Assembly: GCA_964636485.1 (NCBI GenBank)
Contig: CAZWSO010000034.1
Span: 1 to 19,939, forward strand
Reading direction: 5' to 3'
DNA from: an uncultured Gemmatimonadaceae bacterium
Lineage (GTDB): Bacteria; Gemmatimonadota; Gemmatimonadetes; Gemmatimonadales; Gemmatimonadaceae
Length of the DNA stretch: 19,939 bases
Below the pieces are notes generated by a model. That model had not been told where the DNA came from. It saw only the letters and a program-made list of their open reading frames with translations, and made no database searches. A program made the position numbers and the translations under genes. Below are positions 440 through 14,732 of this stretch, in pieces; within the stretch, counting starts at the first letter, position 1; the number at the start of each line of letters is the position of its first letter.

Positions 440-1763
440 AGGCGAATCGCACCACCGGCCTGCCGGACCGGGCGGTTGCCGCACTGCCGCGGCGGACCCC
501 AGGAACCCATTCGATCTGGTCGTCTACGAGGACGACCGGCCATCCACGACGTTCCGCGGCGTCGACGCCGGCGTTAGCGAAGAATCCCTTTACCCGGCGC
601 GGCGTCGTGCCGCCCTCCGGAACCATCCGGTCACCCGGTTGCCACGCGCGTACCGCAAGCCGGCTTCCGGCGGGCAGCTCCACCGACCAAAGCCCTGAGG
701 AGCTATCCACCCGGCGAAACAGCCACCGGTCGAACTTCAATCCATCCGTCAATGCCTGTTCCGCGCTTTCATTCGGCCGACCGGCACGCCGCAGACGCAA
801 CTCGTCGCGGTGCCGAACCACCTCGACGCCGCCGGATAGCTGAATACTGCCTCCCGACAGCCCCTCTGTAGTAAACGACGTGACGCGAACGGTTCCGCGC
901 CGGTCGAGGGTCACTCCTGCGCGCGCCGCCAAACTCTGCCAGATGAGTGCAAGTCCCTGTGAATCATAGCGAAGCAGCGCCTCTCGGGCAACGATGAGCA
1001 CGCCACCAGCCACCCGGTGCGGCACCGACTTCGTGACAAACGCATCCACCTCCTCGCGCAGGCCGGCAGCCCGCCGAGCCAGCGCCAACAGGTCAGCCGA
1101 AAGCTCGGGACGAGCCGTCACCAGGGCGGGAATGAGATCCAGACGTAAGCGATTGCGAAGAAAACGCCGCGAAAGGTTGGAGGGATCCTCTACCCACTCC
1201 AGCCGGTGCGCTGCCGCCCACGCAGCGACGGCGGCGCGTGAGCAGTCGATCATCGGTCGCGTAACGCCCGTGTTCGCGTACAGCGCCGCAAGTCCGCGTG
1301 CACCCGTATCGCGCAGGATACGCATCACCACTGTTTCAAGCTGATCGTCGCGCGTATGCGCCGTGGCGACTCGAGCACCGAGCCGTGCCGCATGCTCATG
1401 GAAGAAGGTCCACCGAACCTCTCGCAGCGCAGCTTCGGACCGCAGCGGGCGTTCGGCCCGGCCCCGGACCACGTCCCATCCGAGGGCGCTGGCGCGCGCC
1501 GCGGCGAGGGCGGCCGCCCTCGCTGCATGTGCGCCGGTGCCATGATCGAAGGTGGCAACCGCACCTACGATGTGAGGAGCAACCTTGGCGATCACATGCA
1601 TCATCACCATCGAATCGCGACCACCGGACACGGCAAGGAGCAGCGCCCGCTCGCCAGCTACCGCCGCGGCGACTTTCGCCTCTATCTCCGCCATGCCGGG
1701 ATCGTGGCTGCCTTGCACCATCGCCGTGCTCATGTCGTCTGGCCGACCTTCGCGCTTAGCCAT
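420..1763 (-). CDS. tilS: tRNA(Ile)-lysidine synthetase
   Basis: 447-aa ORF carrying the PP-loop ATPase motif LLLAVSGGRDSMVMMHV (SGGxDS). Length and the downstream hpt match the conserved tilS-hpt(-ftsH) arrangement. Start is uncertain: an AAGGAGG motif lies about 18 nt upstream of the ATG at 1763, which is long spacing, and internal Met codons at residues 11, 15 and 24 are alternatives. Confidence 0.85.
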   Translation of the reverse strand: MAKREGRPDDMSTAMVQGSHDPGMAEIEAKVAAAVAGERALLLAVSGGRDSMVMMHVIAKVAPHIVGAVATFDHGTGAHAARAAALAAARASALGWDVVRGRAERPLRSEAALREVRWTFFHEHAARLGARVATAHTRDDQLETVVMRILRDTGARGLAALYANTGVTRPMIDCSRAAVAAWAAAHRLEWVEDPSNLSRRFLRNRLRLDLIPALVTARPELSADLLALARRAAGLREEVDAFVTKSVPHRVAGGVLIVAREALLRYDSQGLALIWQSLAARAGVTLDRRGTVRVTSFTTEGLSGGSIQLSGGVEVVRHRDELRLRRAGRPNESAEQALTDGLKFDRWLFRRVDSSSGLWSVELPAGSRLAVRAWQPGDRMVPEGGTTPRRVKGFFANAGVDAAERRGWPVVLVDDQIEWVPGVRRGSAATARSGRPVVRFACERVRN

Positions 1764-1802
1764 AGATTGTGCCGTAAGCTTCCTCCTTCAACCAGGGGTT
1801 GA

Positions 1803-1848
1803 ACTTGGAGACACAGGGACCACTTGGCACCTTGTGGGCCGGACTTGG
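1803..1848. promoter_or_regulatory. three direct ACTTGG hexamers at exactly 20-bp spacing in the tilS/lemA divergent intergenic region
   Basis: ACTTGG occurs at 1803-1808, 1823-1828 and 1843-1848 (read directly). The two-helical-turn phasing places all three on one DNA face, inside the ~254-bp region between the divergent tilS and lemA starts. Confidence 0.3.
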
Positions 1849-2017
1849 CCTCAGTGCCTTCTACGTCGCGCTGATCTGGCTCAACGTCCTGCTCGGCGCC
1901 TTCCTCACACCGCTTTTCCTCATACCGGTCACGTGGTTCGTCGGTGGCAAACGCCGCCGGCACGCAGAGGGGCCGTAGCTTTCGGCACCCAGCCTGGAAT
2001 TATCTCCGGAGGTTCGC

Positions 2018-2599
2018 ATGGGCTTGATTCTGCTGCTCGTCGTCGTCGCCGCCATCACGTTCTGGGTCATCGGGGCATACAACAACCTGATCCGGCTGAA
2101 GAATCAGGTGTTGAACGCCTGGAAACAGATCGACGTGCAGCTCAAGCGCCGCTACGACCTGATCCCCAACCTGGTGGACACGGTGCGCGGCGCGATGCAG
2201 TTCGAGCGTGACACGCTGGAATCGGTGATCAAAGCGCGCAATCAGGCTATACAGGTCAGCGCGTCGAATGCCGGTGTGGCGGGCGTGGCCGCGGCCGAGA
2301 ATCAGCTCACCGCGGCTCTCGGCAAATTGTTCGCACTGGTGGAGGCATACCCGCAGCTCAAGGCGACCGGCAACGTCGCGCAGCTTCAGGAGGAGCTGAC
2401 ATCCACCGAGAACAAGATCGCTTTCGCGCGCCAGCACTACAACGACTCGGCCACACAGTATAACACCAAGCAGCAGCAATTCCCGACCAATCTCGTCGCG
2501 CCGCTCGCGCGTGCGACGCCGGCCGAGCTGTGGGAAATCACCGACGTGCAGGAGCGGAGCGTGCCACGAATCGATCTGTCGATGCGCCCGAGTCCGTGA
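2018..2599 (+). CDS. lemA: LemA family membrane protein
   Basis: 193 aa with an N-terminal TM helix (LILLLVVVAAITFWVIGAY) followed by the LemA signature region NNLIRLKNQVLNAWKQIDVQLKRRYDLIPNLVDTVRG...FERDTLESVIKARNQA. GGAGG sits 7 nt upstream of the ATG. Confidence 0.9.
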   Translation: MGLILLLVVVAAITFWVIGAYNNLIRLKNQVLNAWKQIDVQLKRRYDLIPNLVDTVRGAMQFERDTLESVIKARNQAIQVSASNAGVAGVAAAENQLTAALGKLFALVEAYPQLKATGNVAQLQEELTSTENKIAFARQHYNDSATQYNTKQQQFPTNLVAPLARATPAELWEITDVQERSVPRIDLSMRPSP

Positions 2600-3648
2600 A
2601 CGGCTACGGCCCAAACCTGTTCGACCAGCAGGAGGCAAACCGCCGCCGGTCGCGCTGGCTGGTGATCGGATTCGTTCTTTTCTTCAGCTGGCTGGGGTTT
2701 GGCGGCGACCTGATCATCTGGCTCTGGGCCGGGGACGCTGATCCGGGCGGCTACCGGCACGGTTTCCCCTGGCTGGGGATCGTCATGACCCTCATCGCCG
2801 GCGGGATCGCTCGTCATGCGTGGAAGACCGGACCGGAAAAAGTGCTCTGGGCCACGGGCGCCCGCGAATTACTCGATCCGCAGAGCGATGATGAGCGCCG
2901 CTATGTAAATGTTGTAGAGGAGATGGCGGTGGCCTCCGGACTTCCTCGCCCCCGCATCTGGATCATCGAGGATCCGGACCCCAACGCCTTCGCCACGGGG
3001 CGCGATCCGCACAGCGCCAGCGTCGCAGTTACCACGGGCCTGCTCGCGATATGCTCGCGCGACGAATTGCAGGGTGTGGTGGCGCACGAGATGGGACACG
3101 TCAAGAACCTGGACGTGCGTCTCATGACGCTGCTCGCCGCCCTGGTCGGCGCCGTGGCACTCATCTCCGAAGGACTGGGGCGAACTTTACGAATGGGCGT
3201 GCATCTCGGCGGAGGCCGCCGGGGTGGCGCAGGCCGCAGTGCGGGTCGGAAGGGAGGCAACCTCGGGCCCCTGCTGATCATCCTGCTCGCCGTCTGGATC
3301 ATCAGCTGGATCCTCGCGCCAATAGTCACCCGCGTGCTCGCCCTCGGCGTCAGCCGCCGGCGCGAGTATCTCGCCGACGCCATGGCGGCACAGTTCACGC
3401 GCAACCCAATGGCGCTGGCAACTGCGCTCGAGAAGATCGAGGGCGCACACGGGCCCACTAGATCGATCCACCCCGGCAGTGCACACCTGTGCATCTCGGA
3501 CCCCGCCGGACGCAAGCTCAATCAGCGCGAGGGGCGACTGGCAGAATTTTGGGGCACGCACCCACCGATGAATCTGCGCATCTCTCGGCTGAAGGCGATG
3601 GCATTTCAGGATCAAAAGCGCGCCGGTACGTTCGCCGTCTCGACCTGA
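2596..3648 (+). CDS. M48 family zinc metallopeptidase (HtpX-like), membrane-anchored
   Basis: HEMGH zinc motif plus the downstream REYLADAMAAQ glutamate motif, with N-terminal TM helices (WLVIGFVLFFSWLGFGG). I place the start at GTG 2596, which overlaps the lemA TGA stop as GTGA (translational coupling). The track ORF begins in frame at 2530, but that would overlap lemA by 70 nt. Confidence 0.85.
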   Translation: MNGYGPNLFDQQEANRRRSRWLVIGFVLFFSWLGFGGDLIIWLWAGDADPGGYRHGFPWLGIVMTLIAGGIARHAWKTGPEKVLWATGARELLDPQSDDERRYVNVVEEMAVASGLPRPRIWIIEDPDPNAFATGRDPHSASVAVTTGLLAICSRDELQGVVAHEMGHVKNLDVRLMTLLAALVGAVALISEGLGRTLRMGVHLGGGRRGGAGRSAGRKGGNLGPLLIILLAVWIISWILAPIVTRVLALGVSRRREYLADAMAAQFTRNPMALATALEKIEGAHGPTRSIHPGSAHLCISDPAGRKLNQREGRLAEFWGTHPPMNLRISRLKAMAFQDQKRAGTFAVST

Positions 3649-3818
3649 CGCGATGTTCGGGTCCAAACCATATCTAGCCGCTCTCGTAATGCCGCATATC
3701 TGAAGGCGTCAGTCGCGTGCGAAATCGACCGGTCGCGAGCAGCGCGACGGCGCCGCCAGCGGCTAGCGTTACGAACCCGGTGCCGAGAAGCGCGGATCGA
3801 TCTCATCAATATCAGACA

Positions 3819-3858
3819 GGCGGAGGCCGCCTGGCCTCCGCCTGGCTTGTTATTCGTG
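3819..3858. terminator. terminator hairpin between the convergent M48 and flotillin genes, potentially acting in both directions
   Basis: GGCGGAGGCC (3819-3828), loop GCCT, GGCCTCCGCC (3833-3842) form a perfect 10-bp GC stem. It is followed on the + strand by the T-rich TGGCTTGTTATTCGTG and lies 27 nt beyond the flotillin stop on the - strand. Confidence 0.6.
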
Positions 3859-3868
3859 CGCCCCACCG

Positions 3869-5269
3869 TTAGCGCAGCTCGGCCGGATCAGCAGGATAGT
3901 TGACGGCCGCTGCCGGCACGCTCGCCGTTGCAGCCTTTCGTGCCGCCGCCTGAAGGACAGACTGGATATCGACACCGAAAGCCGAGCCCAGTCCCTCGAT
4001 GGTACGGAATGCGGCGTTCACCCGCTGGTTGGCAGCGTTGCCAACTCCATCGCCAGCGCCGCCGTCGAGCACTACCAGGCGGTCGATCTCGATCCCCTTC
4101 ACCGCCTCAATGGAGGTGGCGAGTAGCGCAGGAAGCTTCTCCGCCATGAATACCGCAAATCCCTGCTCCCCGGAATTTGCGATCTGCTCGTAGATGAGCC
4201 GCAGCACCTCCACCTGTGCCTTGCCGTTCTCGAGAATCGGTGCCGCCTCGGCGCGAGCCTGGGCCTCGGCCGCCTTGCGGTGCGCTTCGGCAGGCTCCAC
4301 GACATCGGCCACGAGACGCCGCCGCTGCAGCTCCACGCGCTGGCTCTCGAGCAGCTGCTGCGCCTCCACCTCTGCCCGCTGCGCTTCCACCTTTGCCACT
4401 CGCTCCGTGGTCTCAGCCTCACGGTTCAGGTTCGCCTGCCGGACACGCAGCTCGTTGCGGGCCTCCGCAATCTTCACGTCCGCTTGCGCCTGCGCTACTT
4501 CCGCCACGCGCCGCGCCTCGGCCTGACGCTGCAGCACTTCTGCCTCCATCTCCGCCTGAGTCACCTCGGCTACTCGCCGCGCCTCAGCCTGCCGCTGTCG
4601 GGTCTCGGCCTCGTTCTGCGCTTCCGCTATCTGCGCCGACTTGAGAATCTGCGACGTCTTTGCTCGACCGACAGCGGCCAGATATCCCACCTCGTCGGTT
4701 ACGTTCTGAATCTTGAGGGTATCGAGCTGGAGGCCAAGTTTCTGGAGATCCTGATCCGCCTCCTGCAGGAGCTCCGCGGCGAACTTCAGCCGGTCTTCGT
4801 TCACTTCCTCGGGCGTGAGTGTCGCAAGCACGCCGCGAAGGTTGGCCGACAGTGTTTCCTTGGCCAACGCTTCGATCTCCTGAACCCGCTTGCCGAGCAG
4901 GCGCTCGACACCATTGTTGAACGTGGCTTCAGGTTCCGATGCCAATTTCACGTTCCCTACCGCCTGCACAGACAGCGGAATGCCTCCCTTTGAGAACGCG
5001 TTCTGCACGCTGAGCTCGATCGGAATCGTCGCCAGCTGCATCCATTGAACCTCCTCGATGATCGGCACGCGCAGTGTGCGGCCGCCGATCACTGCCCGAT
5101 ACCCCACGCCCCGTCCGTCCTCGAGCTGTCGTTTCCGTCCCGTGATGATGGCGGCTGTGTTGGGCGGTACAATGACGACTAGCGACTTGATGGTTGCAAT
5201 GAGGGCGATAAGCGCCAGAACAACGACTACGGCCGCGGCAACCGGCCCGACGAAGGTGATGTCTTCCAT
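3869..5269 (-). CDS. floT: flotillin family protein (SPFH/band 7 domain, FloT/YuaG-like)
   Basis: N-terminal TM helix then an SPFH domain (VVIVPPNTAAIITGRKRQ..., IPIELSVQNAFSKGGIPLSVQAVGNVK) and a long Glu/Ala/Arg/Gln-rich coiled-coil typical of flotillins. Start chosen at the ATG at 5269 (MEDITFVG) with AGGAGA 8 nt upstream. The track ORF extends to 5335 with a non-homologous leader. Confidence 0.9.
   Translation of the reverse strand: MEDITFVGPVAAAVVVVLALIALIATIKSLVVIVPPNTAAIITGRKRQLEDGRGVGYRAVIGGRTLRVPIIEEVQWMQLATIPIELSVQNAFSKGGIPLSVQAVGNVKLASEPEATFNNGVERLLGKRVQEIEALAKETLSANLRGVLATLTPEEVNEDRLKFAAELLQEADQDLQKLGLQLDTLKIQNVTDEVGYLAAVGRAKTSQILKSAQIAEAQNEAETRQRQAEARRVAEVTQAEMEAEVLQRQAEARRVAEVAQAQADVKIAEARNELRVRQANLNREAETTERVAKVEAQRAEVEAQQLLESQRVELQRRRLVADVVEPAEAHRKAAEAQARAEAAPILENGKAQVEVLRLIYEQIANSGEQGFAVFMAEKLPALLATSIEAVKGIEIDRLVVLDGGAGDGVGNAANQRVNAAFRTIEGLGSAFGVDIQSVLQAAARKAATASVPAAAVNYPADPAELR
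4508..4596. repeat. 66-nt tandem duplication inside the flotillin coiled-coil region
   Basis: cgccgcgcctcggcctgacgctg (4508-4530) and cgccgcgcctcagcctgccgctg (4574-4596) are 66 nt apart. They encode the repeated protein segment (L/R)QRQAEARRVAEV(T/A)QA. Confidence 0.6.
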
Positions 5270-5297
5270 GCTGCTTCTCTCCTGGGGTGAATGCCGG

Positions 5298-5843
5298 TCA
5301 GTCCACTTCCGCCGGCAGCTCCTCGACGGGTGCAACGAGTGCCGCCCCGTTTTTCATGTCCACGATGACCACCGATGTCCACTGCTCCGGGGCAATCGCG
5401 CTTTCTTCGTGCCCGAATGGCCGAGCGAGCAGTTCGTGCCTCCGCCCCCCACGCAACACGGCCACCTTTCCGAGACCGCCGCCACCGATCGGTACCGTAA
5501 TCTGAGCGGGAAGACCGATGAAGCCGTGATCGCCCTCCCGCTCGCCCGAATCCGTGGCGCGGAGATAGCGGAACACCAGGCTGGCCACCCCGCTGATCGC
5601 GAAGCCCGCGGCGGCGGCGAGTAGCAGGGTGATTATTGGGCCGCCACGCCAGGCCAGCGTCAGCGCGGTACCTACGCCGCCAAAGGTGAATAGAAAATAG
5701 ATAAGCGACCGAAGCGACAGAACCTTGAACGCCTCGGCGAATCCCGTATCGACACCGACGTCGTGATCGCCGTGATCGCTGAACAGCGACACGGCGAGCA
5801 GGCCGCCACCCAGAACGAGCGCGAAGAGAAAGAGCTGGAGCAT
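5298..5843 (-). CDS. nfeD: NfeD family protein (short form, membrane-anchored OB-fold partner of flotillin)
   Basis: 181 aa with several N-terminal TM helices and a C-terminal soluble beta-rich domain (GKVAVLRGGRRHELLARP...WTSVVIVDMKNGAALV). It sits immediately upstream of, and co-directional with, the flotillin gene (29-nt gap). nfeD-flotillin is a classic operon. Confidence 0.8.
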   Translation of the reverse strand: MLQLFLFALVLGGGLLAVSLFSDHGDHDVGVDTGFAEAFKVLSLRSLIYFLFTFGGVGTALTLAWRGGPIITLLLAAAAGFAISGVASLVFRYLRATDSGEREGDHGFIGLPAQITVPIGGGGLGKVAVLRGGRRHELLARPFGHEESAIAPEQWTSVVIVDMKNGAALVAPVEELPAEVD

Positions 5844-6007
5844 GCAAGACGGGGGATGAGACGACGGCCGGGATAGTGCCGCCTACGTTGTGGTCGCCGA
5901 CGGCGCAACGCAAGCACTCTCACACAGTCCCAGCCGCCATGTCCAATCCCTGCGCCCGGCGGACCGGTTATGACGGGGTAAACGGGGGGCTCCGCCCAGC
6001 CTGCGGT

Positions 6008-6030
6008 CCCCGCTCGAAGCGCGAGCGGGG
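6008..6030. other. GC-rich hairpin 19 nt beyond the isocitrate lyase remnant stop
   Basis: CCCCGCTCG (6008-6016), loop AAGCG, CGAGCGGGG (6022-6030) form a perfect 9-bp stem. No U-tract follows on either strand, so this is not a canonical intrinsic terminator. Confidence 0.3.
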
Positions 6031-6048
6031 TTGCCCTGCAGCGGTTCG

Positions 6049-6440
6049 TTATGCGCCCGACGCTTTCTTGAACTGCGCCGCTTCTGTGGATCCATCGAGC
6101 GCGCCAGTGGACGCCGCTCCCGCGGTAATGGTCATGAGCACCCGGTCGAACTAACCGGTGCCCGCCTCCCGCTGGTGACGCGTAGCCGTGTAGCCATCGC
6201 TCTCCGCCGCAAACTCCTCAGCCTGCAGGCGCACGTAGGCGGGCTCGTCACGATATGCCTGCGCGAGCGAGTACGTGTGGTAGTTCACCAGGTGCCGGCG
6301 AGAGTGATGAACTGGAAGCGGTAGCCGAACGTGGCCAGCTCGCGCTGGAAGCGAACGGTGGTCTCGTCATCGAGATGCTTCTGCCAGGTTGAACGAAGGG
6401 CGAACAGTTGTACGCCAGCGAATCCCCCACTGCAGCTCTT
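6049..6440 (-). pseudogene. aceA: isocitrate lyase (aceA) 3' remnant: N-terminally truncated, two frameshifts, one in-frame TAG
   Basis: Three consecutive minus-strand frames together spell the C-terminal ~130 aa of isocitrate lyase: ...[11 protein letters not shown], then [33 protein letters not shown], then [80 protein letters not shown]. Compare the canonical KLLAYNCSPSFNWKKHLDD...FQKEL...KFQFITLAG(F)H(A)LNY...GYTATKHQREVG(A)GYFD...TALTGSTEE.QF. The frame changes near 6395 and 6290 are -1 shifts, and the TAG replaces the conserved Tyr of GYFD. The ~300 N-terminal codons are absent because aceB ends at 6495. Confidence 0.8.
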
Positions 6441-6494
6441 CCTGGTTCCAGCGGGTTCGCAGTTGAGCAGCTTCCGTGGCGTCCTCTCGAGCAC

Positions 6495-8111
6495 TCATTG
6501 TCTCTCCCTGTGGCTGGAGTGCCTCTCACCCAGATAGTGATAGCCCGGCAGGGTGAGGAAATCCTCGAACTGATCGTCGAGCACCAGCGCGTCCAGGAGC
6601 TCGGCGGCATCGGCATAGCGGTTCTCGCTCTCCGCACCAGCGGTAAGGGCGGCGAGCTCGTCATCGCGAAGCTGCTCGTACAGCGCAGGCGTCATCGTTC
6701 CTCCGTCAGCGAGAGCGGTCCCGTGGCGCAGCCATTGCCAGAGCTGGGCACGCGAAATTTCAGCGGTGGCGGCGTCTTCCATGAGGTTGTTGATGGCCGC
6801 CGCACCCAGACCGCGCAACCAGGACTCGATGTACTGGAGCGCAACGCTTACGTTGGTGCGCACTCCTTCCCGTGTGACCGTGCCACCAGGAATGTGGAAA
6901 TCGAGGAGCGCATCTGCATCAGGGCTGACATCCTCACGCAGACGCTCTTTCTGGTTGGGGTGTTCTCCGAGTACCTGGTCGAAGGCCTCCCGAGCCACCG
7001 GCACCAGATCTGGATGCGCGACCCACGTACCATCGAAGCCGTCGCGGGACTCCCGATGCTTGTCCTCTCGCACCTTGGCCAGGGCCCGCTCGTTCACCTC
7101 GGCGTCGCGTCGGCTGGGAATGAATGCCGCCATCCCGCCCATAGCGTGCGCACCGCGACGGTGGCAGGTATGTACCAGGAGCTCCGTGTAGGCGCGCATG
7201 AATGGGACGGTCATCGTGACCTGCGCCCGCTCGGGAAGCACCGCGTCCTCGACATGCCGGAACTGCTTGATGACGCTGAAAATGTAGTCCCACCGGCCAG
7301 CGTTGAGCCCGGCGGCGTGCTCCCTTAGCTCGTACAGGATCTCGTCCATCTCGAATGCCGCCAGGATGGTTTCGATCAGAACCGTGGCGCGCACCGACCC
7401 GCGCGGCACATCGAGCTCGTCCTGTGCGTAGAGGAATACATCGTTCCACAGACGGGCTTCGAGTCGGCTCTCCAGCTTCGGGATATAGAAGTACGGACCC
7501 GCTCCTCGCGCGAGCTGCTCGCGCGCATTGTGAAAGAAGCAAAGCCCAAAGTCGAACAGGCTCGCCGACACTGGCTCTGCATCCACCAGAAAGTGCCGTT
7601 CCGGCAGGTGCCAGCCTCGCGGGCGCACGAGCAACGTGGCTGTCCGCTCCGCCAACCTGTACTCGCGCCCGTCAGGGCTCGTGAACGTAAGGGTGCGCCT
7701 CACGGCATCCATCACGTTCGCCTGCCCCTCGACGACGTTCTCCCATGTGGGAGAGAGTGAATCCTCGAAGTCGGCCATGAAGGCGCTGGCGCCGGAGTTG
7801 AGCGCGTTGATCATCATCTTTCGGTCGACTGGTCCGGTGATCTCGACGCGCCGATCCCTGAGTGCGGGAGGCGCGGGCGCGACGCGCCAGTCGCCGCGCC
7901 GTATTTTCTCGGTAGCCGAGGGAAAATTGAGACGCTCACCAGCGACGAGGCGCTCTCGCCTTTGGGCGCGCGCCTCCAGCAGCTCGAGCCGGCGCGCGTT
8001 GAATGCACGATGCAGTCGGGCGACGAATTCAACCGCGTCAGGCGCGAGTACGCGCTCGCGAGAGCCCGTATCCTCGCCGATGACCGCAATGCTCTCCGGA
8101 AGTACCGCCAT
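6495..8111 (-). CDS. aceB: malate synthase A
   Basis: 538 aa containing [54 protein letters not shown] and the C-terminal FLTLPGY motif. GAGGGA lies 5 nt upstream of the ATG at 8111. Confidence 0.92.
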
Positions 8112-8374
8112 CGAGTCCCTCGAATTGAGGATGTCTGGCCAACGCGACAGCGCGGCCGAGCTGAGACAGCCGGCCGCACCGCACCCGATCGAGCTGGAGC
8201 GCTGCCCCGGGAAATTCTCGTCCCAGGGAACTCCAACCAGCGATCCTAGTGCAGGTTCGGGGCCGTTAGCGCAAGAGCTGTGCTATCTCTGCACCCATGA
8301 GGCGACGGCCTCGGGGGCGAGCAAACGCACGCCTGACGGCACAGTGCTGCGCCTCCAGACCCACGGGGTGTGCG

Positions 8375-8415
8375 TTCGCGCAACACAATAATAGTCAAAC
8401 GTTGTGCCAATCACG
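8375..8415. promoter_or_regulatory. AT-rich island with a short palindrome in the aceB / small-ORF divergent intergenic region (candidate promoter or operator)
   Basis: cgcaaCACAAtaatagtcaaacgTTGTGccaatcacg is markedly AT-rich for this GC-rich window. It contains the 5-bp inverted repeat CACAA...TTGTG, and on the minus strand (aceB direction) a TTGACT -35-like hexamer. It sits roughly midway in the 414-bp gap between aceB (8111) and the ORF at 8526. Confidence 0.25.
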
Positions 8416-8525
8416 TGGTACCGATCGCTCCGATGTCCCCACCTCCGGAGCGCTGGCGCGTCCGATGCATAGGAGAAGGACGAACGAGCTGAGGAGGCTG
8501 TGGACAACGCGGACAGGGGGATCGA

Positions 8526-8807
8526 ATGCAACAGCGATTTCAGTTCTTCGAGGAATACACGGGTCCGAGCATGCAGAAGAGCATGCGGAACGTGATTGCC
8601 ATAGATATGTCAGGTGCAGCGTTCGTGAAGGAGGGGGGGGTCTGCCTGAGCGCGGTGTGCTCGGAGACGGAGGACGAGGGGGTCGATGCCGTCGCTACCA
8701 CGTACTTCAACGCCGAATACCTCGGCACACACTGCAGGCGCATCAGCGAGGACCGTGCGCGAACGCTGCACCCCCGGCTGTTCGAGTATCTCGACGCTTT
8801 GTGCTGA
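8526..8807 (+). CDS. hypothetical small protein (93 aa), 4 Cys, acidic centre, no recognisable family
   Basis: ATG with GGGGGA 5 nt upstream. Third-codon-position G+C is about 80% by manual count, which fits real coding in this frame, although the first ~30 codons use atypical A/T-ending codons. It contains a G8 homopolymer at 8633-8640 (GAG GGG GGG GTC). Convergent with the ydbT-like gene. Confidence 0.45.
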   Translation: MQQRFQFFEEYTGPSMQKSMRNVIAIDMSGAAFVKEGGVCLSAVCSETEDEGVDAVATTYFNAEYLGTHCRRISEDRARTLHPRLFEYLDALC

Positions 8808-8871
8808 CGGAGGGGGAAGAGATCGGAGCCGCCTTCGGAGCCGGTGAGCGCGCGCTCGACGGCTTCGGGGG

Positions 8872-10389
8872 CTAAGCTTCCGCAACGTGCGACCGGTCGC
8901 CACGCACTCCAAACCTCCGCATCGCCGCTCGCAGTCGGATCGCCAACTCCGCCTGCAGCTGCAGCGCATCCGCTCTGGCAAGGTCCACCACTACCGCCTG
9001 ACGCCCGCCCCCCGCCGTATCTATCACGAGACTCGCCAACCCGTGGCGGCGCTGGAACGGAGTCTCGCTGGTCAGGAGGACCTGGAGTTTGTGGTTTGGT
9101 ACGACCCACGTGATACGATTCAACACACCGTTACGCGCGGCCACGAACCCGGGCGCGATGGCATAGCCGCGGTGCCGGTACTGCCACGCAGCGATCCCAT
9201 AGAGCGCGGGCAGGAGCAGGAGGAGGAGCGCCCACTGTCCATCCACTGCCCAACCAAGCGCTGACACGACAAGTATCAGCCCGGCGGAGTAACGGATGAA
9301 CGCACGCCGGCGCGAGCGCGGGTGCACGGGCTGGAAGCGCAGCGCACCAAGGTCGAGGTCCGGGAAAACCCCCGCGACGAGCGCCGGCAGCTCGCCGCGC
9401 CGCGCCAGGGGGAGGAACGCCTCCGCACCTCCACGCTGCCGCTCGCCAACAGGGCCGCCAGCCGTCGCCACCTTCAGGCTGGCTAGACCAAAGGGCCGGC
9501 GCAGTAGCGACTCCTCTATCCGCAGGGCCTGTACGCGCTCGAGCGGGATGACGGATTCCCGCCTGTTGAGCAAACCGTAGCTCTTGCGGAGCTCCGTGTC
9601 GATCCGCTCGAGTGTGAATCCGTGATAGCCTATGACGCTGCCAAGGATGGACACGATCCATCCGAGAACGATGAAGACCGCCAGCGCCACGACGACGAAC
9701 AGTACCGCGGCCGATACCGCAGGTAGTTCGACCAGGTCGAGTTGGCCGATGATCCTCTCCGCAAAGGGGTCGAGGAACTGAAGGGCTCCGAAGAGCGCAG
9801 CGGCGATCAGGCCCGCTTCATTGGCGGTCGCACCGGCGACCACCAGATCCCCGGTATCAAGCCGTGCGAGCGTTTGCCCGGCCTGCGGCTTCGGCGCCGC
9901 CTCCTCCTCGCCGGCGCGGCGTTGCACGGCACGTTGCCGCCGCGCCATTACGTCCAGTCGAAGTGCCTGTGCAACTTCGCGCGCCAGCACGGTGAGGTCT
10001 GCCTCCGCCTCTCCGGCGCCTCCAGCCGTCTCCACGCGCAGCTCCGCCACCCCAGCCAGTTGATGCAGCACGCCCTGACGCATCTCGATGTTCTGCACGC
10101 GGGAGAAAGGGATCACACGGTGGTGTCGCCGCAGAATCCCGGACGTGATGACGAGTTCCTCAGCGCCTACCCTGTAGCGGAAGCTCAGGTACTTGGCGAG
10201 TGCGAAAAGGAACGCCGGCACAGTGAGGATGAGTGCCAGCCAGAAGACGAACGTCCCTGGCGCTTCGCGGCTCGCCGAAAAGGCACCAACGACGGCTGGA
10301 AATATCAGCCGACGAGCCCATGCCAGCGCGGCGAAGACGAGAGTGAGCGGGTGCAGCCGCTGTGGCTCACCATCGACAGCTCCGGTCAT
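8872..10389 (-). CDS. ydbT: YdbT-like membrane protein with three bacterial PH (bPH_2/DUF304) domains
   Basis: Three repeats of a TM hairpin followed by a bPH_2 core (e.g. RVQNIEMRQGVLHQLAGVAELRVETAGG, ERVQALRIEESLLRRPFGLASLKVATAGG, HKLQVLLTSETPFQRRHGLASLVIDTAGG). I prefer the ATG at 10389 (MTGAVDGEPQRLHP...), 16 nt after the ydbS stop; a GTG at 10422 would overlap ydbS by 17 nt. Confidence 0.8.
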   Translation of the reverse strand: MTGAVDGEPQRLHPLTLVFAALAWARRLIFPAVVGAFSASREAPGTFVFWLALILTVPAFLFALAKYLSFRYRVGAEELVITSGILRRHHRVIPFSRVQNIEMRQGVLHQLAGVAELRVETAGGAGEAEADLTVLAREVAQALRLDVMARRQRAVQRRAGEEEAAPKPQAGQTLARLDTGDLVVAGATANEAGLIAAALFGALQFLDPFAERIIGQLDLVELPAVSAAVLFVVVALAVFIVLGWIVSILGSVIGYHGFTLERIDTELRKSYGLLNRRESVIPLERVQALRIEESLLRRPFGLASLKVATAGGPVGERQRGGAEAFLPLARRGELPALVAGVFPDLDLGALRFQPVHPRSRRRAFIRYSAGLILVVSALGWAVDGQWALLLLLLPALYGIAAWQYRHRGYAIAPGFVAARNGVLNRITWVVPNHKLQVLLTSETPFQRRHGLASLVIDTAGGGRQAVVVDLARADALQLQAELAIRLRAAMRRFGVRGDRSHVAEA

Positions 10390-10405
10390 GTCCCCGGCCG
10401 CGCCG

Positions 10406-10867
10406 TCAGACGGCGTCGTCACTGCCGCTCAACTGTGCCAGGCGTTCCCGCAGCGACTCCGCGTCTTCCTGCACGAGCCCCGGGATCGAGAGCGACGCCC
10501 CCACTGTGCCGGCAGTGAACATCACCACGGACGCCAATCCCATCGATCGTTCTATAGGGCCCTGCTGAGTGTCCACGTGCTGAATGCGACCATGGGGCAC
10601 TACACTCGTTGTCCGCCACAGAACGCCATGCCGAAGAAACACATCGCTGTCCCGCACCTGAAAGCCCCAGTGGCGATACCGTACCGGAGGCCAGAGTAGC
10701 GTGAGCACGATTCCAGAAGCGAATACGACGGCCACGGTCAGGAACGGCGGCAATGGTAGATCAGTCAGACGGAGCGCGAACACCACAAGAATCGTGAAAA
10801 CGAACGTCCGGATCAGCCAGCCGAGGCGCCAAAGTCCAATCACGCGAGGATCCAGATTGCGCATCAT
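10406..10867 (-). CDS. ydbS: YdbS-like membrane protein with a single bacterial PH (bPH_2/DUF304) domain
   Basis: LDPRVIGLWRLGWLIRTFVFTILVVFAL (the N-terminal WRL motif plus TM hairpin typical of YdbS) then a bPH_2 core (FQVRDSDVFLRHGVLWRTTSVVPHGRIQHVDTQQGPIERSMGLASVVMFTAG). Start taken at ATG 10867 by homology-based positioning. The open frame runs up to 10999 but the extra 44 codons are low-complexity. Confidence 0.72.
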   Translation of the reverse strand: MMRNLDPRVIGLWRLGWLIRTFVFTILVVFALRLTDLPLPPFLTVAVVFASGIVLTLLWPPVRYRHWGFQVRDSDVFLRHGVLWRTTSVVPHGRIQHVDTQQGPIERSMGLASVVMFTAGTVGASLSIPGLVQEDAESLRERLAQLSGSDDAV

Positions 10868-11120
10868 GGAATGCTCGGTCGCCACTGCCGCCTCTTCCCC
10901 TTCCACCTTGTGCTCCTCCTCAGTCGGGCCGTGCCGCAAGGCTCCCACGCTGCCGGCCAGACCGCGGCCGACGTCGAATCTGTGTCGCGCCGACGCCATT
11001 GCCTAGCCCCTGGCTGAGGTCGCGGAAATCCCGGCGGTGGACATCCCGCGTGCGGAGCGATACCGTCATGTCCCGGCGACGCCACACGGGCAACCCGGGT
11101 GAACCCGGCACGGAGGGCAG

Positions 11121-11723
11121 ATGAGACGCGGCATTCGATACACGTCTACACTGACGGCGATCATCGGCGTGGCAGTCCTGACGGCGTGCCCACGTGACCG
11201 GAACGCGAGCGCTGAGGTGGAAGCGGCACCCGAGGAGCAGGTCGCCTTCTTCGAGAGCATTCGGGAGCGCTGCGGCGATGCTTACCCCGGTCAGACACAG
11301 TTCGTCGCCATTCCGGACAGTCCGATGGCGAACGCCCGACTCGTGATGTACATCGAGAGCTGTACGGACTCGGTCATCCGCATCCCATTCGTGGTCGACC
11401 AGGATCACTCCCGCACCTGGGTCCTTACGCTCACTTCTGGCGGCCTGCTCTTCAAGCACGATCATCGGCACGCCGACGGCACGCCGGAGGATACCACGAA
11501 CTATGGCGGGTGGGCGACGGCGGAGGGCACGGCGACCACGCAACACTTCCCCGCGGACGAGGAAACGGCGCAGATGATCCCGCCAGCGGCCACAAACGTC
11601 TGGACCCTCTCGCTGGATCCTGCGACATCGCGGTTCGTCTACGACCTCCAGCGCGATGCCGCACCACGTTTCCGCGCCGAGTTCGACCTCACCACACCGG
11701 TATCCCCTCCACAGCACCCCTGA
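11121..11723 (+). CDS. hypothetical lipoprotein
   Basis: Signal peptide with lipobox: MRRGIRYTSTLTAIIGVAVLTAC (L-T-A-C). GGAGGG 4 nt upstream of the ATG. The TGA stop at 11721-11723 overlaps the tsaC ATG (TGATG). No family recognised. Confidence 0.6.
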   Translation: MRRGIRYTSTLTAIIGVAVLTACPRDRNASAEVEAAPEEQVAFFESIRERCGDAYPGQTQFVAIPDSPMANARLVMYIESCTDSVIRIPFVVDQDHSRTWVLTLTSGGLLFKHDHRHADGTPEDTTNYGGWATAEGTATTQHFPADEETAQMIPPAATNVWTLSLDPATSRFVYDLQRDAAPRFRAEFDLTTPVSPPQHP

Positions 11724-12733
11724 TGGCGGAAGGGATGCGACGCATCCGGGTCGACCCGGCGGCGCCGGATCCCGCCGTCATTCGCGAGGCCGCCGGTATA
11801 CTACGTGACGGCGGCCTCGTAGCGTTTCCAACGGAAACAGTATATGGCCTGGGTGCCAGTGCCTTCGACGCGGCCGCCGTGCGGCGGATATTTGATGCGA
11901 AGGCGCGACCCGGCCACAATCCGCTCATAGTACACGTGCCGGATGAAGCCCACGCCGCTGACCTCGCTCGCGAGTGGCCGCCGGAGGCCGGCCGCCTGGC
12001 GGCGGCGTTTTGGCCGGGTCCGCTCACACTGGTAGTGAGAAAGGTGGAGACGATTCCCAGCGAGGTCACTGCCGGACTGCCGACCGTGGGGCTCCGGGTG
12101 CCCGCGCATCCCGTTGCTCTGGCACTGCTGCGGGAAGTCGAACTACCGCTGGCCGCGCCCAGCGCGAATCCATTCGCGTCGATCTCGCCGACTACCGGTG
12201 GTCATGTCGAAGCGGGGCTGGGCCATCGAGTGGACCTTCTGCTGGATGCCGGTCCCACGCCGATCGGGATCGAATCCGCGGTGGTAGACCTCACTGGGCA
12301 GAGTCCAGTGCTCCTCAGACCAGGCTCGATATCCGCGGAGCGCCTGTCCGAGGTGGCGGGCGCGCTCGATTTGAACGTCGACCTCGAAGCCGAGGAGGCG
12401 CCACGACGCTCGCCAGGCATGCTTCGGCGGCACTACGCGCCGAAGGGTGCGGTGCGTCTATTCGGCGGCGCGGACCGCGAGCTCGTGCGCGCCGATGTCG
12501 ATAGCGCCCGGGCAGCAGGGCAGCGGGTTGGCGCGCTCCTCCTGGAACCCTTCGCTGCGGAGGTGGATCACCCCATACTGATGCCTGACGACGCGGAGAC
12601 ATATGCACGCCAGCTCTACGCCGCGCTCCACTCGCTCGAGCGCGAACAATGCGACCTGATCCTCATTGAGCAAGTGCCCGAGACGCCGGAGTGGCGGGGC
12701 ATTCGCGATCGGTTGAGCCGCGCCTCAGCATAG
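11723..12733 (+). CDS. tsaC: L-threonylcarbamoyladenylate synthase (YrdC/Sua5 family, with Sua5 C-terminal domain)
   Basis: AFPTETVYGLGASAFD, KARPGHNPLIVHV and LAAPSANPFASISPTT motifs of the YrdC fold, plus a ~120-aa C-terminal Sua5 domain. The track ORF begins in frame at 11510, but that region is the lipoprotein gene in another frame. The start is placed at the ATG at 11723 (MAEGMRRIRV). Confidence 0.88.
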   Translation: MAEGMRRIRVDPAAPDPAVIREAAGILRDGGLVAFPTETVYGLGASAFDAAAVRRIFDAKARPGHNPLIVHVPDEAHAADLAREWPPEAGRLAAAFWPGPLTLVVRKVETIPSEVTAGLPTVGLRVPAHPVALALLREVELPLAAPSANPFASISPTTGGHVEAGLGHRVDLLLDAGPTPIGIESAVVDLTGQSPVLLRPGSISAERLSEVAGALDLNVDLEAEEAPRRSPGMLRRHYAPKGAVRLFGGADRELVRADVDSARAAGQRVGALLLEPFAAEVDHPILMPDDAETYARQLYAALHSLEREQCDLILIEQVPETPEWRGIRDRLSRASA

Positions 12734-12746
12734 CGAACACGACGAG

Positions 12747-14732
12747 TCACGGCGTCCACTCGTGCGCTTCACGCGTGATGTAGGGGAACGCGTGCTCGCT
12801 GTCAATTCGAATCCGCGAAATGGAAGGATGCGCTCGCACGCGAAGGACCTGGGCTCGCTGCCCAGTCAACCAGGCACTGACGGTCAGCTCGTGCTGCTCG
12901 ACACTGCCCGGCTCGCGGGTTACCTCCAGACGCACGGGCATCGGCGCTGTACCACGATCCTCCACCACCACCTGGATCCATTCGCCTGCTTCCGTTACGG
13001 ACGCGATCGCGTGGTCGAGCGTCCACGTCTCGTAAAACCAGCTTCGCCAGAACCAGCCGAGGTCGCGTCCGCTCACGCGCTCAAAGGTATTCCACAGGTC
13101 TTCGGGCTGTGGGTGCCTGTTGATCCAGACGCGACCATACTCGCGATATGCCCGCTCGAAAGTAGCCTCGCCGACGAGGGCGCGAAGTGCTGAGAGCACC
13201 GCCGCCATCTTGTCGTATCCGGCCACGACGAAGGCTGACGTGCCGATCGGATACAGATCGCCGTGCCTCATCAATTCGACTTCGCCGCTCTGACGTGCCA
13301 ACGACAGGTAGCGTTCCCTGGCAACCTCTTCCAGATCGTAGCCGTCAAAGAACTCCCTCATTGCCTGTGCCTGATTGAAGCGCGTCAGTCCCTCGTCCTG
13401 CCAGGTATGGCGCTTCTCATCGGACGCGACCTGCATGGGGAACCACATGTGCGCGATCTCGTGAACCGTCACGGAGTAGAGTGCCAGCGTGTCGCGATCA
13501 CCGCCGATCAACGTAATCATGGGGAACTCCATGCCGCCCGTAATAATTCCCTCCACGGACGTCATGTGCTTGTAGGGATACGGCCACAAGTAGCGCGACA
13601 GGAACTCCACGGAGTGCCGGCCGTACCGAGCGGACTCAGTCCAGGTACGCGCGCCCGGCCGGTAGAGCGAGTGGATCATGACCGTGTCCGCTCGATGTTC
13701 TCCCACCGTATCGCCAACCAGCGCACGCGTAGCGTCCCACAAATAGTGTTCCGATGTCCCGAAGGCGAAGTCGCGCACGTTCTCTGCGCGATACTGCCAC
13801 GTCAACCAGCCATCGAAACCGGCTGCCGTGGCATGCCCGGCGCCGCGCTCGGCGGCGCCGATCACTGAGACGACATCGCCAGAGCGGCGTGCTTCCACCA
13901 GACGTTCGAGTACCGTGGGCGAAAGCACGTCCAGACTGTTCAGTAACTCTCCAGTTGCGGCCACCAGCCATCCCGCCGGCAACGTGATGCGAACGTCGTA
14001 GTCAGCGAATCCCATGTGGAACTCCGCCGCGCCCAGATACTGGTCCACATGCCACCCGCTCACGTCATCAAACACGGCGACCTGCGGGTACCAGTAGGCG
14101 AGAAAGAACACCTCGCCATCCTGCCCCATGCGGGGCGCACCGACGGGGGGGACCGTGAACGCCCAATGAACGTCGATCTCCACCTGCTGACCCGGCGCCA
14201 GCGGGCGTGGAAGGCGCACCCACGCCACAGTCCCATCCACACGGTAGCTGGCAGAATCCGACGGCGCCGTCACCAACGGCAGGCTCTCGCCTGCCACCGC
14301 CACCCGCTCGAGGCTAATGCCTCCGGTCACCGGCACCGCCCGGTTCCGGGCCGCACCAGGAGCATGGAGATTCTGGTACAGATGCAGGGCGATGTCGGGG
14401 AGCGGATATGGAGACCGGTTCTCGTACCGGATAGTGCCGCGGCCACGGAGGCGAGCCGCCGCCGGGTCGAGCTCGGCGTGCAGCTCGTAAGATGCGTACT
14501 GCTGCCAGTAGGCGGCACCCGGCGCGCCGGCGCGGGTGCGGGTACCCCGTTCCACGGCGCGCGCGAACGGTTCTCGCTCGACCAGCGCGTAGGGAATCGG
14601 TCGCGAGCCGTCCAACGCGAGCGCCGCCGCGGCCGGGGTATCCGATACCGGCACGGCACGAGGGCTCGTGGCGCAGGCAAGCGGGATCGCAACAGAGACG
14701 GCGAGAAGGTAATTGAGGAATCGCTTCGGCAT
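12747..14732 (-). CDS. M1 family metallopeptidase (aminopeptidase N-like), secreted
   Basis: 661 aa with HEIAHMWF (HExxH) followed by WQDEGLTRF (the third zinc-ligand Glu) and the upstream GGMEFPM exopeptidase motif. N-terminal signal peptide MPKRFLNYLLAVSVAIPLACA with an AxA cleavage site. Confidence 0.88.
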   Translation of the reverse strand: MPKRFLNYLLAVSVAIPLACATSPRAVPVSDTPAAAALALDGSRPIPYALVEREPFARAVERGTRTRAGAPGAAYWQQYASYELHAELDPAAARLRGRGTIRYENRSPYPLPDIALHLYQNLHAPGAARNRAVPVTGGISLERVAVAGESLPLVTAPSDSASYRVDGTVAWVRLPRPLAPGQQVEIDVHWAFTVPPVGAPRMGQDGEVFFLAYWYPQVAVFDDVSGWHVDQYLGAAEFHMGFADYDVRITLPAGWLVAATGELLNSLDVLSPTVLERLVEARRSGDVVSVIGAAERGAGHATAAGFDGWLTWQYRAENVRDFAFGTSEHYLWDATRALVGDTVGEHRADTVMIHSLYRPGARTWTESARYGRHSVEFLSRYLWPYPYKHMTSVEGIITGGMEFPMITLIGGDRDTLALYSVTVHEIAHMWFPMQVASDEKRHTWQDEGLTRFNQAQAMREFFDGYDLEEVARERYLSLARQSGEVELMRHGDLYPIGTSAFVVAGYDKMAAVLSALRALVGEATFERAYREYGRVWINRHPQPEDLWNTFERVSGRDLGWFWRSWFYETWTLDHAIASVTEAGEWIQVVVEDRGTAPMPVRLEVTREPGSVEQHELTVSAWLTGQRAQVLRVRAHPSISRIRIDSEHAFPYITREAHEWTP

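Follow-up and report, generated by a model that had tools for sequence, protein, structure and literature searches.

The question raised by this locus is whether aceA, the gene for isocitrate lyase (ICL), has been lost from a former glyoxylate-shunt operon while its partner aceB, which codes for malate synthase A (MS), has been kept, and, if so, what role is left to the MS. The window, i.e., the whole stretch of DNA that was analysed, is an entire MAG contig (NCBI) from an uncultured member of the Gemmatimonadaceae, of 19,939 nt and with a GC content of 65%. An initial annotation of it described a decayed ICL gene next to an intact MS gene, and this description is borne out, as an aceA relic directly follows aceB, both on the minus strand (Table 1). 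The answer that we regard as very probable is that aceA is dead at the 3' end of a former aceB-aceA operon, in a subclade that is losing ICL in parallel while MS is retained.

Table 1. Features of the aceB-aceA locus and of its surroundings in the window. A slash separates the two positions between which an event falls.
Feature	Coordinates	Strand	Basis or remark
aceB (malate synthase A, MS)	8111..6495	minus	intact, 538 aa
aceA (isocitrate lyase, ICL) pseudogene, whole relic from ATG to original TAA	6498..6049	minus	blastn to L001 aceA, PDB ICL match
First 26 aceA codons, retained	6498..6421	minus	translation from ATG
Junction of 844-nt internal deletion	6418..6420 (join 6419/6418)	minus	codons ~27-308 (~281) gone
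+1 insertion, extra T (CCCT-T-CG)	6397/6396	minus	alignment to L001, L164
+1 insertion, extra C (AAC-C-TGG)	6388/6387	minus	alignment to L001, L164
4-nt deletion, GCCGGC[TGGC]ACCTG	6294/6293	minus	frameshift; Trp of LAGWH lost; creates TGA 6287..6285
6-nt in-frame deletion	6244/6243	minus	Gly-Met of RDEGMPAY lost; six bases kept in L162, L163, L001, L164
Nonsense change TAC to TAG	6153..6151	minus	Tyr of conserved GTGYFD
Original aceA TAA	6051..6049	minus	
GC hairpin, 9 bp, CCCCGCTCG-CGCTT-CGAGCGGGG	6008..6030	minus	sequence and fold; 19 nt past relic TAA; no U-tract
Membrane protein gene, 181 aa	5843..5298	minus	no Pfam match; NfeD-like by position
SPFH/Band 7 flotillin-like gene	5269..3869	minus	94% identity to L001
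ORF, 93 aa, MQQRFQFFEEYTGPSMQKSM...	8526..8807	plus	divergent from aceB

The product of aceB carries the Pfam domains MS_N, MS_TIM-barrel, and MS_C, with E-values down to 6e-111, and its residues 8-526 align with residues 7-527 of the 528-aa malate synthase A (MSA) of B. anthracis, 3CUX (E=5e-196). The alignments with 3CUX and 3CUZ run from end to end and display the three domains of a full-length enzyme of the A isoform. The active-site motifs RPRGWH, EMDEIL, GRWDY, and DGTWVAHP are either identical or conservatively replaced in the alignment with 3CUX, by which activity is predicted; they include the residues that we take to be the catalytic ones assigned in MSA/MSG, namely the Arg of RPRGWH, the Glu of EMDEIL, the Asp of GRWDY, and the Asp of DGTWVAHP. 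The gene shows no gaps relative to its orthologues and a dN/dS of 0.08, and these comparisons mark its product as a putative malate synthase A of full length on which purifying selection still acts.

Regarding the stretch that follows, its frame-repaired translation matches solved ICLs with an E-value of 6.6e-43 (3e5b, residues 305-432) and the Pfam ICL family with 1.3e-15. The similarity to ICL on which the initial annotation had staked its reading is therefore found, and the ICL peptides that it had pieced together from three frames are all present on the minus strand. Among the species-representative genomes, the nearest is L001, a contig of a Gemmatimonadaceae MAG, which is collinear with window 1480..14069. 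When the relic was compared to it by blastn, two blocks were returned, L001 7614-7693 and 8537-8915, such that window 6498..6419 corresponds to nt 1-80 of the L001 aceA and window 6419..6049 to its last 379 nt. The relic thus consists of ICL codons 1-26 joined to codons ~308-433. The statement that no N-terminal codons are left does not hold, as the ATG and the first 26 codons are retained and ~281 codons are missing through one deletion. This deletion measures 844 nt by comparison with L001, a length not divisible by three, so that it is itself out of frame; compared with L162 (GCA_964605335.1), which has a +1 of its own, it measures 845 nt. Over ~107 nt that cover the 3' end of aceB and the 5' segment of aceA, the window shares 95% nucleotide identity with L162. 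The deletion junction has a 2-nt GC microhomology, and the 7-mer GC[A/T]GGCC occurs at both breakpoints in L162. The KKCGH catalytic loop and SGWQ are known motifs of the ICL family; both fall inside the deleted segment, and both are present in the intact aceA of another relative, L164.

The remaining 3' part holds further damage. Its two +1 insertions lie 9 nt apart, with the SFN codons between them in the third frame, and its 4-nt deletion falls at a site where L163 and L001 keep GGCTGGCA. Two single-base frame changes had been reported, near 6395 and near 6290: frameshifts do occur at both places, but this part contains three frame-shifting indels, because the first site is a pair of insertions and the second is a loss of four nucleotides rather than of a single base. 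The TAG that had been read at the conserved Tyr is where it was said to be, and the 6-nt in-frame deletion comes in addition to the lesions recognized earlier. In place of the open TIM-barrel ORF of ~430 aa that a functional ICL would have, there are remnants spread over three frames and interrupted by the TAG, and the relic, as judged from these frames, is unable to encode ICL. Translation coupled to that of aceB would yield at most a 43-aa nonsense peptide (6498..6367). Counted against the intact aceA of L164 and L165, which stands in identical synteny, the lesions are six, and what is left of the gene is a pseudogene of the ordinary bacterial kind in a degraded aceBA operon.

The probable course of events is that one illegitimate-recombination or slippage event between short GC-rich microhomologies produced the 844-nt deletion, by which the catalytic core was lost in its entirety, the KKCGH loop with it, and the frame was shifted. 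The 3' remainder would have gained the two +1 insertions, the 4-nt and 6-nt deletions, and the TAC to TAG change, in whatever order. A point that counts against this account is that the relic combines five indel events (four small ones and the 844-nt deletion) with almost no nonsynonymous excess, which implies an unusually high indel-to-substitution ratio or a very recent burst.

To place these lesions among those of related bacteria, relatives were collected through a protein search with the MS, their contigs were fetched, and each aceA was compared to the intact 433-aa aceA of L164. The two genes of the window are adjacent on one strand with an overlapping stop and start, ATGA at 6498..6495, in which the TGA of aceB (6497..6495) shares bases with the ATG of the relic (6498..6496); this is the arrangement expected of coupled genes, and the same ATGA is found in L162, L001, and L164. 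The ancestral aceB-aceA operon postulated by the initial annotation can be recognized in L164 and L165 (MS identity 81%), where aceB and a 433-aa aceA are both intact, with the same overlap and the same flanking genes. In L168 (81%), aceA is open as far as the contig end, and in L166 and L167 (79%) it is open except for a 100-N scaffold gap.

The three relatives that are closest, by contrast with L164 and L165, have aceA broken by lesions that differ from those of the window, as the syntenic comparison proposed at the outset revealed. In L162 (MS 93%), the gene is of full length and carries a TAC to TAA change at codon 30 (Tyr), a +1 near nt 633, and SGWP in place of SGWQ; in L001 (MS 88%), a +1 gives rise to a TAA at nt 265, followed by a -1 at nt 315, the point lesions of both being read from a single MAG consensus each. 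In L163 (Logan, DRR769818; MS 92%), a deletion of ~1045 nt runs from aceB codon ~530 to aceA codon ~340, together with a +1. No lesion is common to any two of the four lineages (window, L162, L163, and L001), and the same gene would therefore have been knocked out separately in the three closest known relatives. Of the 168 loci fetched, 88 have ICL next to MS, and outside the subclade every one of the 68 ICL genes beside MS that do not run off a contig is open, so that broken aceA genes number four of four within the subclade and none of 68 elsewhere (p~1e-6). A single ancestral inactivation was considered and rejected on account of the KKCGH loop, which is intact in L001 and L162, and of the low omega.

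Several apparent lesions were set aside during this comparison. The aceA of L166 was discarded as a fifth pseudogene, because its apparent 365-nt deletion is a run of 100 N; this gap (7126..7228 of L166, GCA_964628595.1) leaves a called ICL fragment of 95 aa that is open to misreading as a pseudogene. In the ICL genes of L044 and L150, what looks like an internal stop is the natural one following ...EEQF, past which the HSP runs, and these genes are not pseudogenes. Small paired indels in the divergent N-terminus, seen in the global alignments of L162, L001, and L166, sum to zero and were regarded as alignment noise. Apart from these, a scan of metagenome contigs with the MS gave a best identity of 71%, with none from the close clade, and one further contig, L161 (Logan, SRR35968911), found via the 93-aa ORF of Table 1, matches window 7789..13034 at 96.6% nucleotide identity and ends within aceB.

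When the losses took place can be approached through the substitutions, for which dN/dS was calculated by the Nei-Gojobori method (NG86). For aceB, dN/dS is 0.072-0.124 over all pairs and about 0.08 among the four close lineages, with dS at 0.46-1.0. For the aceA relic, the values are 0.056 (window-L001), 0.106 (window-L162), and 0.19 (window-L163), and for the full-length aceA genes of L162 and L001 the value is 0.058. The substitutions assigned to the window branch of the relic comprise 7 nonsynonymous and 16 synonymous ones, distributed over the codon positions as 2/3/18; the resulting N/S of 0.44, compared with 0.35 for aceB on the same branch (p=0.79), leaves relaxation not detectable. 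Such low values in the relic indicate that strong purifying selection acted on aceA during nearly the entire time over which the lineages diverged, and, together with the lack of any common lesion, they point to four knock-outs that were recent and independent. The substitution pattern would thus show each aceA knock-out to be recent relative to the divergence of the lineages.

This timing bears on the first of the rival explanations, according to which another functional ICL keeps the shunt running, be it an additional aceA, an enzyme of the ICL2 type, or a methylisocitrate lyase that also has ICL activity. The data come from one contig of the genome, and ICL paralogues or distant ICL-like genes are found near MS in other taxa (~29-35% identity; L043, L081, and L082), both of which lend this explanation some credit; if a second ICL exists, the shunt has not been lost and only a redundant copy is gone. 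However, for nearly as long as the four lineages have been diverging, the aceA of the operon had a dN/dS equal to or below that of aceB, which argues that the operon copy was needed until recently, since an old redundant paralogue would have relaxed selection on aceA earlier. Four parallel losses would moreover require the recent gain or takeover of a paralogue in all four lineages. We therefore hold redundancy to be unlikely.

A second alternative is that the whole operon is decaying, i.e., that the shunt has become useless and aceB is neutral and has so far escaped being hit. Little time has passed since aceA was lost, and in L163 the deletion and the +1 remove the last 10 codons of aceB, leaving a product of 528 aa, as this view would lead one to expect. 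That tail nevertheless extends past the point where the solved 528-aa MSA fold ends, and each of the four lineages in which aceA is broken has an open aceB. Within the window, the four small disabling lesions in the 450-nt relic would translate into 14.4 in the 1617 nt of aceB if the latter were neutral, and none is observed (P~6e-7). The absence of lesions from aceB where ~14 would be expected, and its open frame in four lineages, indicate that MS has been retained by selection after the loss of ICL, and decay of the operon as a whole appears decidedly improbable. Concerning the details of L163, the +1 is an extra A (CT-A-GGGTGA, 6560..6600) that ends MS 10 codons early, and the aceA deletion starts at the 3' end of aceB and has clipped its non-conserved tail.

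Could the lesions be errors of the assembly, with aceA intact in the organism? The source is a MAG, and two of the indels fall in short runs (CCCTT and AACC). A separate Logan contig, L169 (run SRR16547336, 1375 nt), built by a different assembler, nonetheless corresponds to window 7356..5982 with no gaps and one mismatch and carries each of the six lesions exactly; as it may share reads with the MAG, it excludes an error of the assembler and leaves an error at the level of the platform. The 69-aa junk ORF at 6494..6285, which runs across the junction and the two insertions as far as the TGA created by the 4-nt deletion, has one exact match in the database, recorded from both NCBI and Logan. 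The five indel events and the nonsense codon are packed into the 450-nt relic, whereas the other ~17 kb of coding sequence of the contig is free of frameshifts and none of its genes is disrupted, a clustering that is unlike sequencing noise. Besides, base-calling error does not produce a loss of 844 nt that lacks repeats on its flanks, and three further assemblies, which come from separate samples and pipelines, have differing lesions in aceA. The judgement of the initial annotation that sequencing error is improbable is accordingly strengthened, and an intact aceA hidden by MAG errors is barely credible. The sole difference between the window and L169, G versus C at position 6133, changes ATG to ATC in the old frame of the relic and may be a polymorphism inside the pseudogene.

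Hardly any weight attaches, finally, to the idea that the relic has a new function, either as a small protein from the C-terminal helices of ICL or as a regulatory 3' UTR of aceB, because, even though the ATGA coupling is preserved in the window and the relic of L163 is an open, in-frame ORF of 92 codons with a Pfam ICL match, the window relic is spread over three frames with a TAG and no ORF covers what is conserved in it, no common architecture is shared by the relics of the four lineages, and Rfam gave no match in the window at the gathering threshold.

With a dead aceA and a retained aceB as the preferred reading, the consequences for metabolism can be considered. From the one contig of 19.9 kb, we infer that the acetate-assimilating shunt would have been lost with ICL, unless another ICL is encoded elsewhere in the genome, and the MS is probably kept to dispose of, or assimilate, glyoxylate that comes from an ICL-independent route. 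The initial annotation had offered the loss of the shunt and the retention of MS for an ICL-independent role as two possibilities; they are not exclusive, and both fit the open aceB of four lineages that have lost ICL. In the Gemmatimonadota, glycolate oxidase would be the most plausible source of glyoxylate. In this phylum, the glyoxylate cycle is of patchy occurrence (52% of soil genomes), and the glycolate oxidase genes glcDEF are frequent (PMC10581226). MS without ICL is also known, working in a "malate cycle" on glyoxylate derived from glycolate (PMC7486775). These precedents render an ICL-independent role of MS plausible and are not proof of it for the genome of the window, whose contig has none of the genes for producing glyoxylate (glcDEF, allantoin, and hydroxyproline routes) and thus lends no local support to the proposed role.

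Compared with the aceBA(K) operon of the E. coli type, the locus has the same order of aceB and aceA on one strand, the same overlap of stop and start, and an MS of the A isoform, an arrangement found exactly in the intact relatives L164 and L165; it differs in that aceA is destroyed, no aceK or IclR-type regulator is visible on the contig, and a conserved 93-aa ORF is divergent from aceB. With the classical gene decay of Mycobacterium leprae and M. shottsii, it shares the homology to a family, the many disabling lesions, the deletional bias, and the intact orthologue in relatives, whereas here the neighbours are all intact and one gene has been hit separately in four free-living lineages. Examples of MS without ICL, such as E. 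coli GlcB with glcDEF and the "malate cycle" of Cupriavidus necator (PMC7486775), resemble it in that MS is apparently kept and the partner ICL is missing. Unlike GlcB-type MS, the enzyme is an A isoform in a former shunt operon rather than GlcB in a glc operon, and the source of glyoxylate is not on the contig. As genomes with MS only are already known, what is modestly new is the parallel and recent loss of aceA in four related lineages that retain MS; the loss in the window is not described in the literature that was searched.

Beyond the loss itself, it can be asked whether ICL is being shed adaptively and recurrently rather than by passive decay. The long purifying selection on aceA, its recent and separate knock-outs, and the keeping of aceB would agree with this idea, which we advance tentatively, as possible rather than probable. 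If it holds, a recent ecological shift shared by these lineages would have made flux through ICL costly and turned a shunt operon into a glyoxylate-scavenging module. Alternatively, recurrent losses could reflect source-sink dynamics, in which ICL-null variants arise repeatedly, are locally favoured, and are evolutionarily short-lived. The four separate knock-outs, set against outgroups whose available aceA genes are lesion-free, represent a natural replicated experiment, and ICL and MS would be separable in free-living, soil-type bacteria. The retention of MS after ICL was lost supports a role of A-type MS in consuming glyoxylate independently of ICL, and the subclade is a lineage where this role could be tested with metagenomic or metatranscriptomic data. 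On its own, the pseudogene is of importance chiefly to annotation: a metabolic reconstruction that scores "glyoxylate shunt present" from aceB, or from a Pfam ICL fragment, would be mistaken about this MAG and about the three relatives nearest to it.

The surroundings of the relic contribute some minor features. The hairpin located past the original TAA is a weak feature that would possibly mark the end of the former aceBA transcript; a scan of 5700-6600 for promoters and terminators found nothing above shuffles and did not call this hairpin, and hairpins 3' of aceA are not conserved among the relatives. Further 3', the genes for the 181-aa membrane protein and the flotillin-like protein are kept as a pair in all relatives, and ~120 nt upstream of the former are also conserved (82%). 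Look-ups of the exact proteins for the MS, the NfeD-like protein, and the flotillin of the window returned no record. The neighbours shared with L001, namely TilS, an M48 peptidase, the flotillin, the NfeD-like gene, two bPH_2 genes, Sua5, and an M1 peptidase, are all open and collinear. The stretches 8872..10999 (minus) and 11121..12733 (plus) hold the two bPH_2 (bacterial PH domain) membrane genes, arranged in tandem and coding for 197 and 516 aa, and a 200-aa gene with no Pfam match in head-to-tail fusion with Sua5/TsaC; a long ORF taken from the mechanical ORF list, 10920..11717 (minus), was rejected as spurious. Lastly, the 93-aa ORF lies inside the 760-nt gap between aceB and bPH_2; its GC3 pattern resembles that of coding sequence, and it lacks a Pfam match at E<=1. 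In L161-L168, gene calling places a counterpart of 92-94 aa at the corresponding position. The ORF could be a regulator or a partner of the aceB locus, and its identity to the counterpart in L001 is 96.8%, well above that of the neighbouring genes (77-94%).
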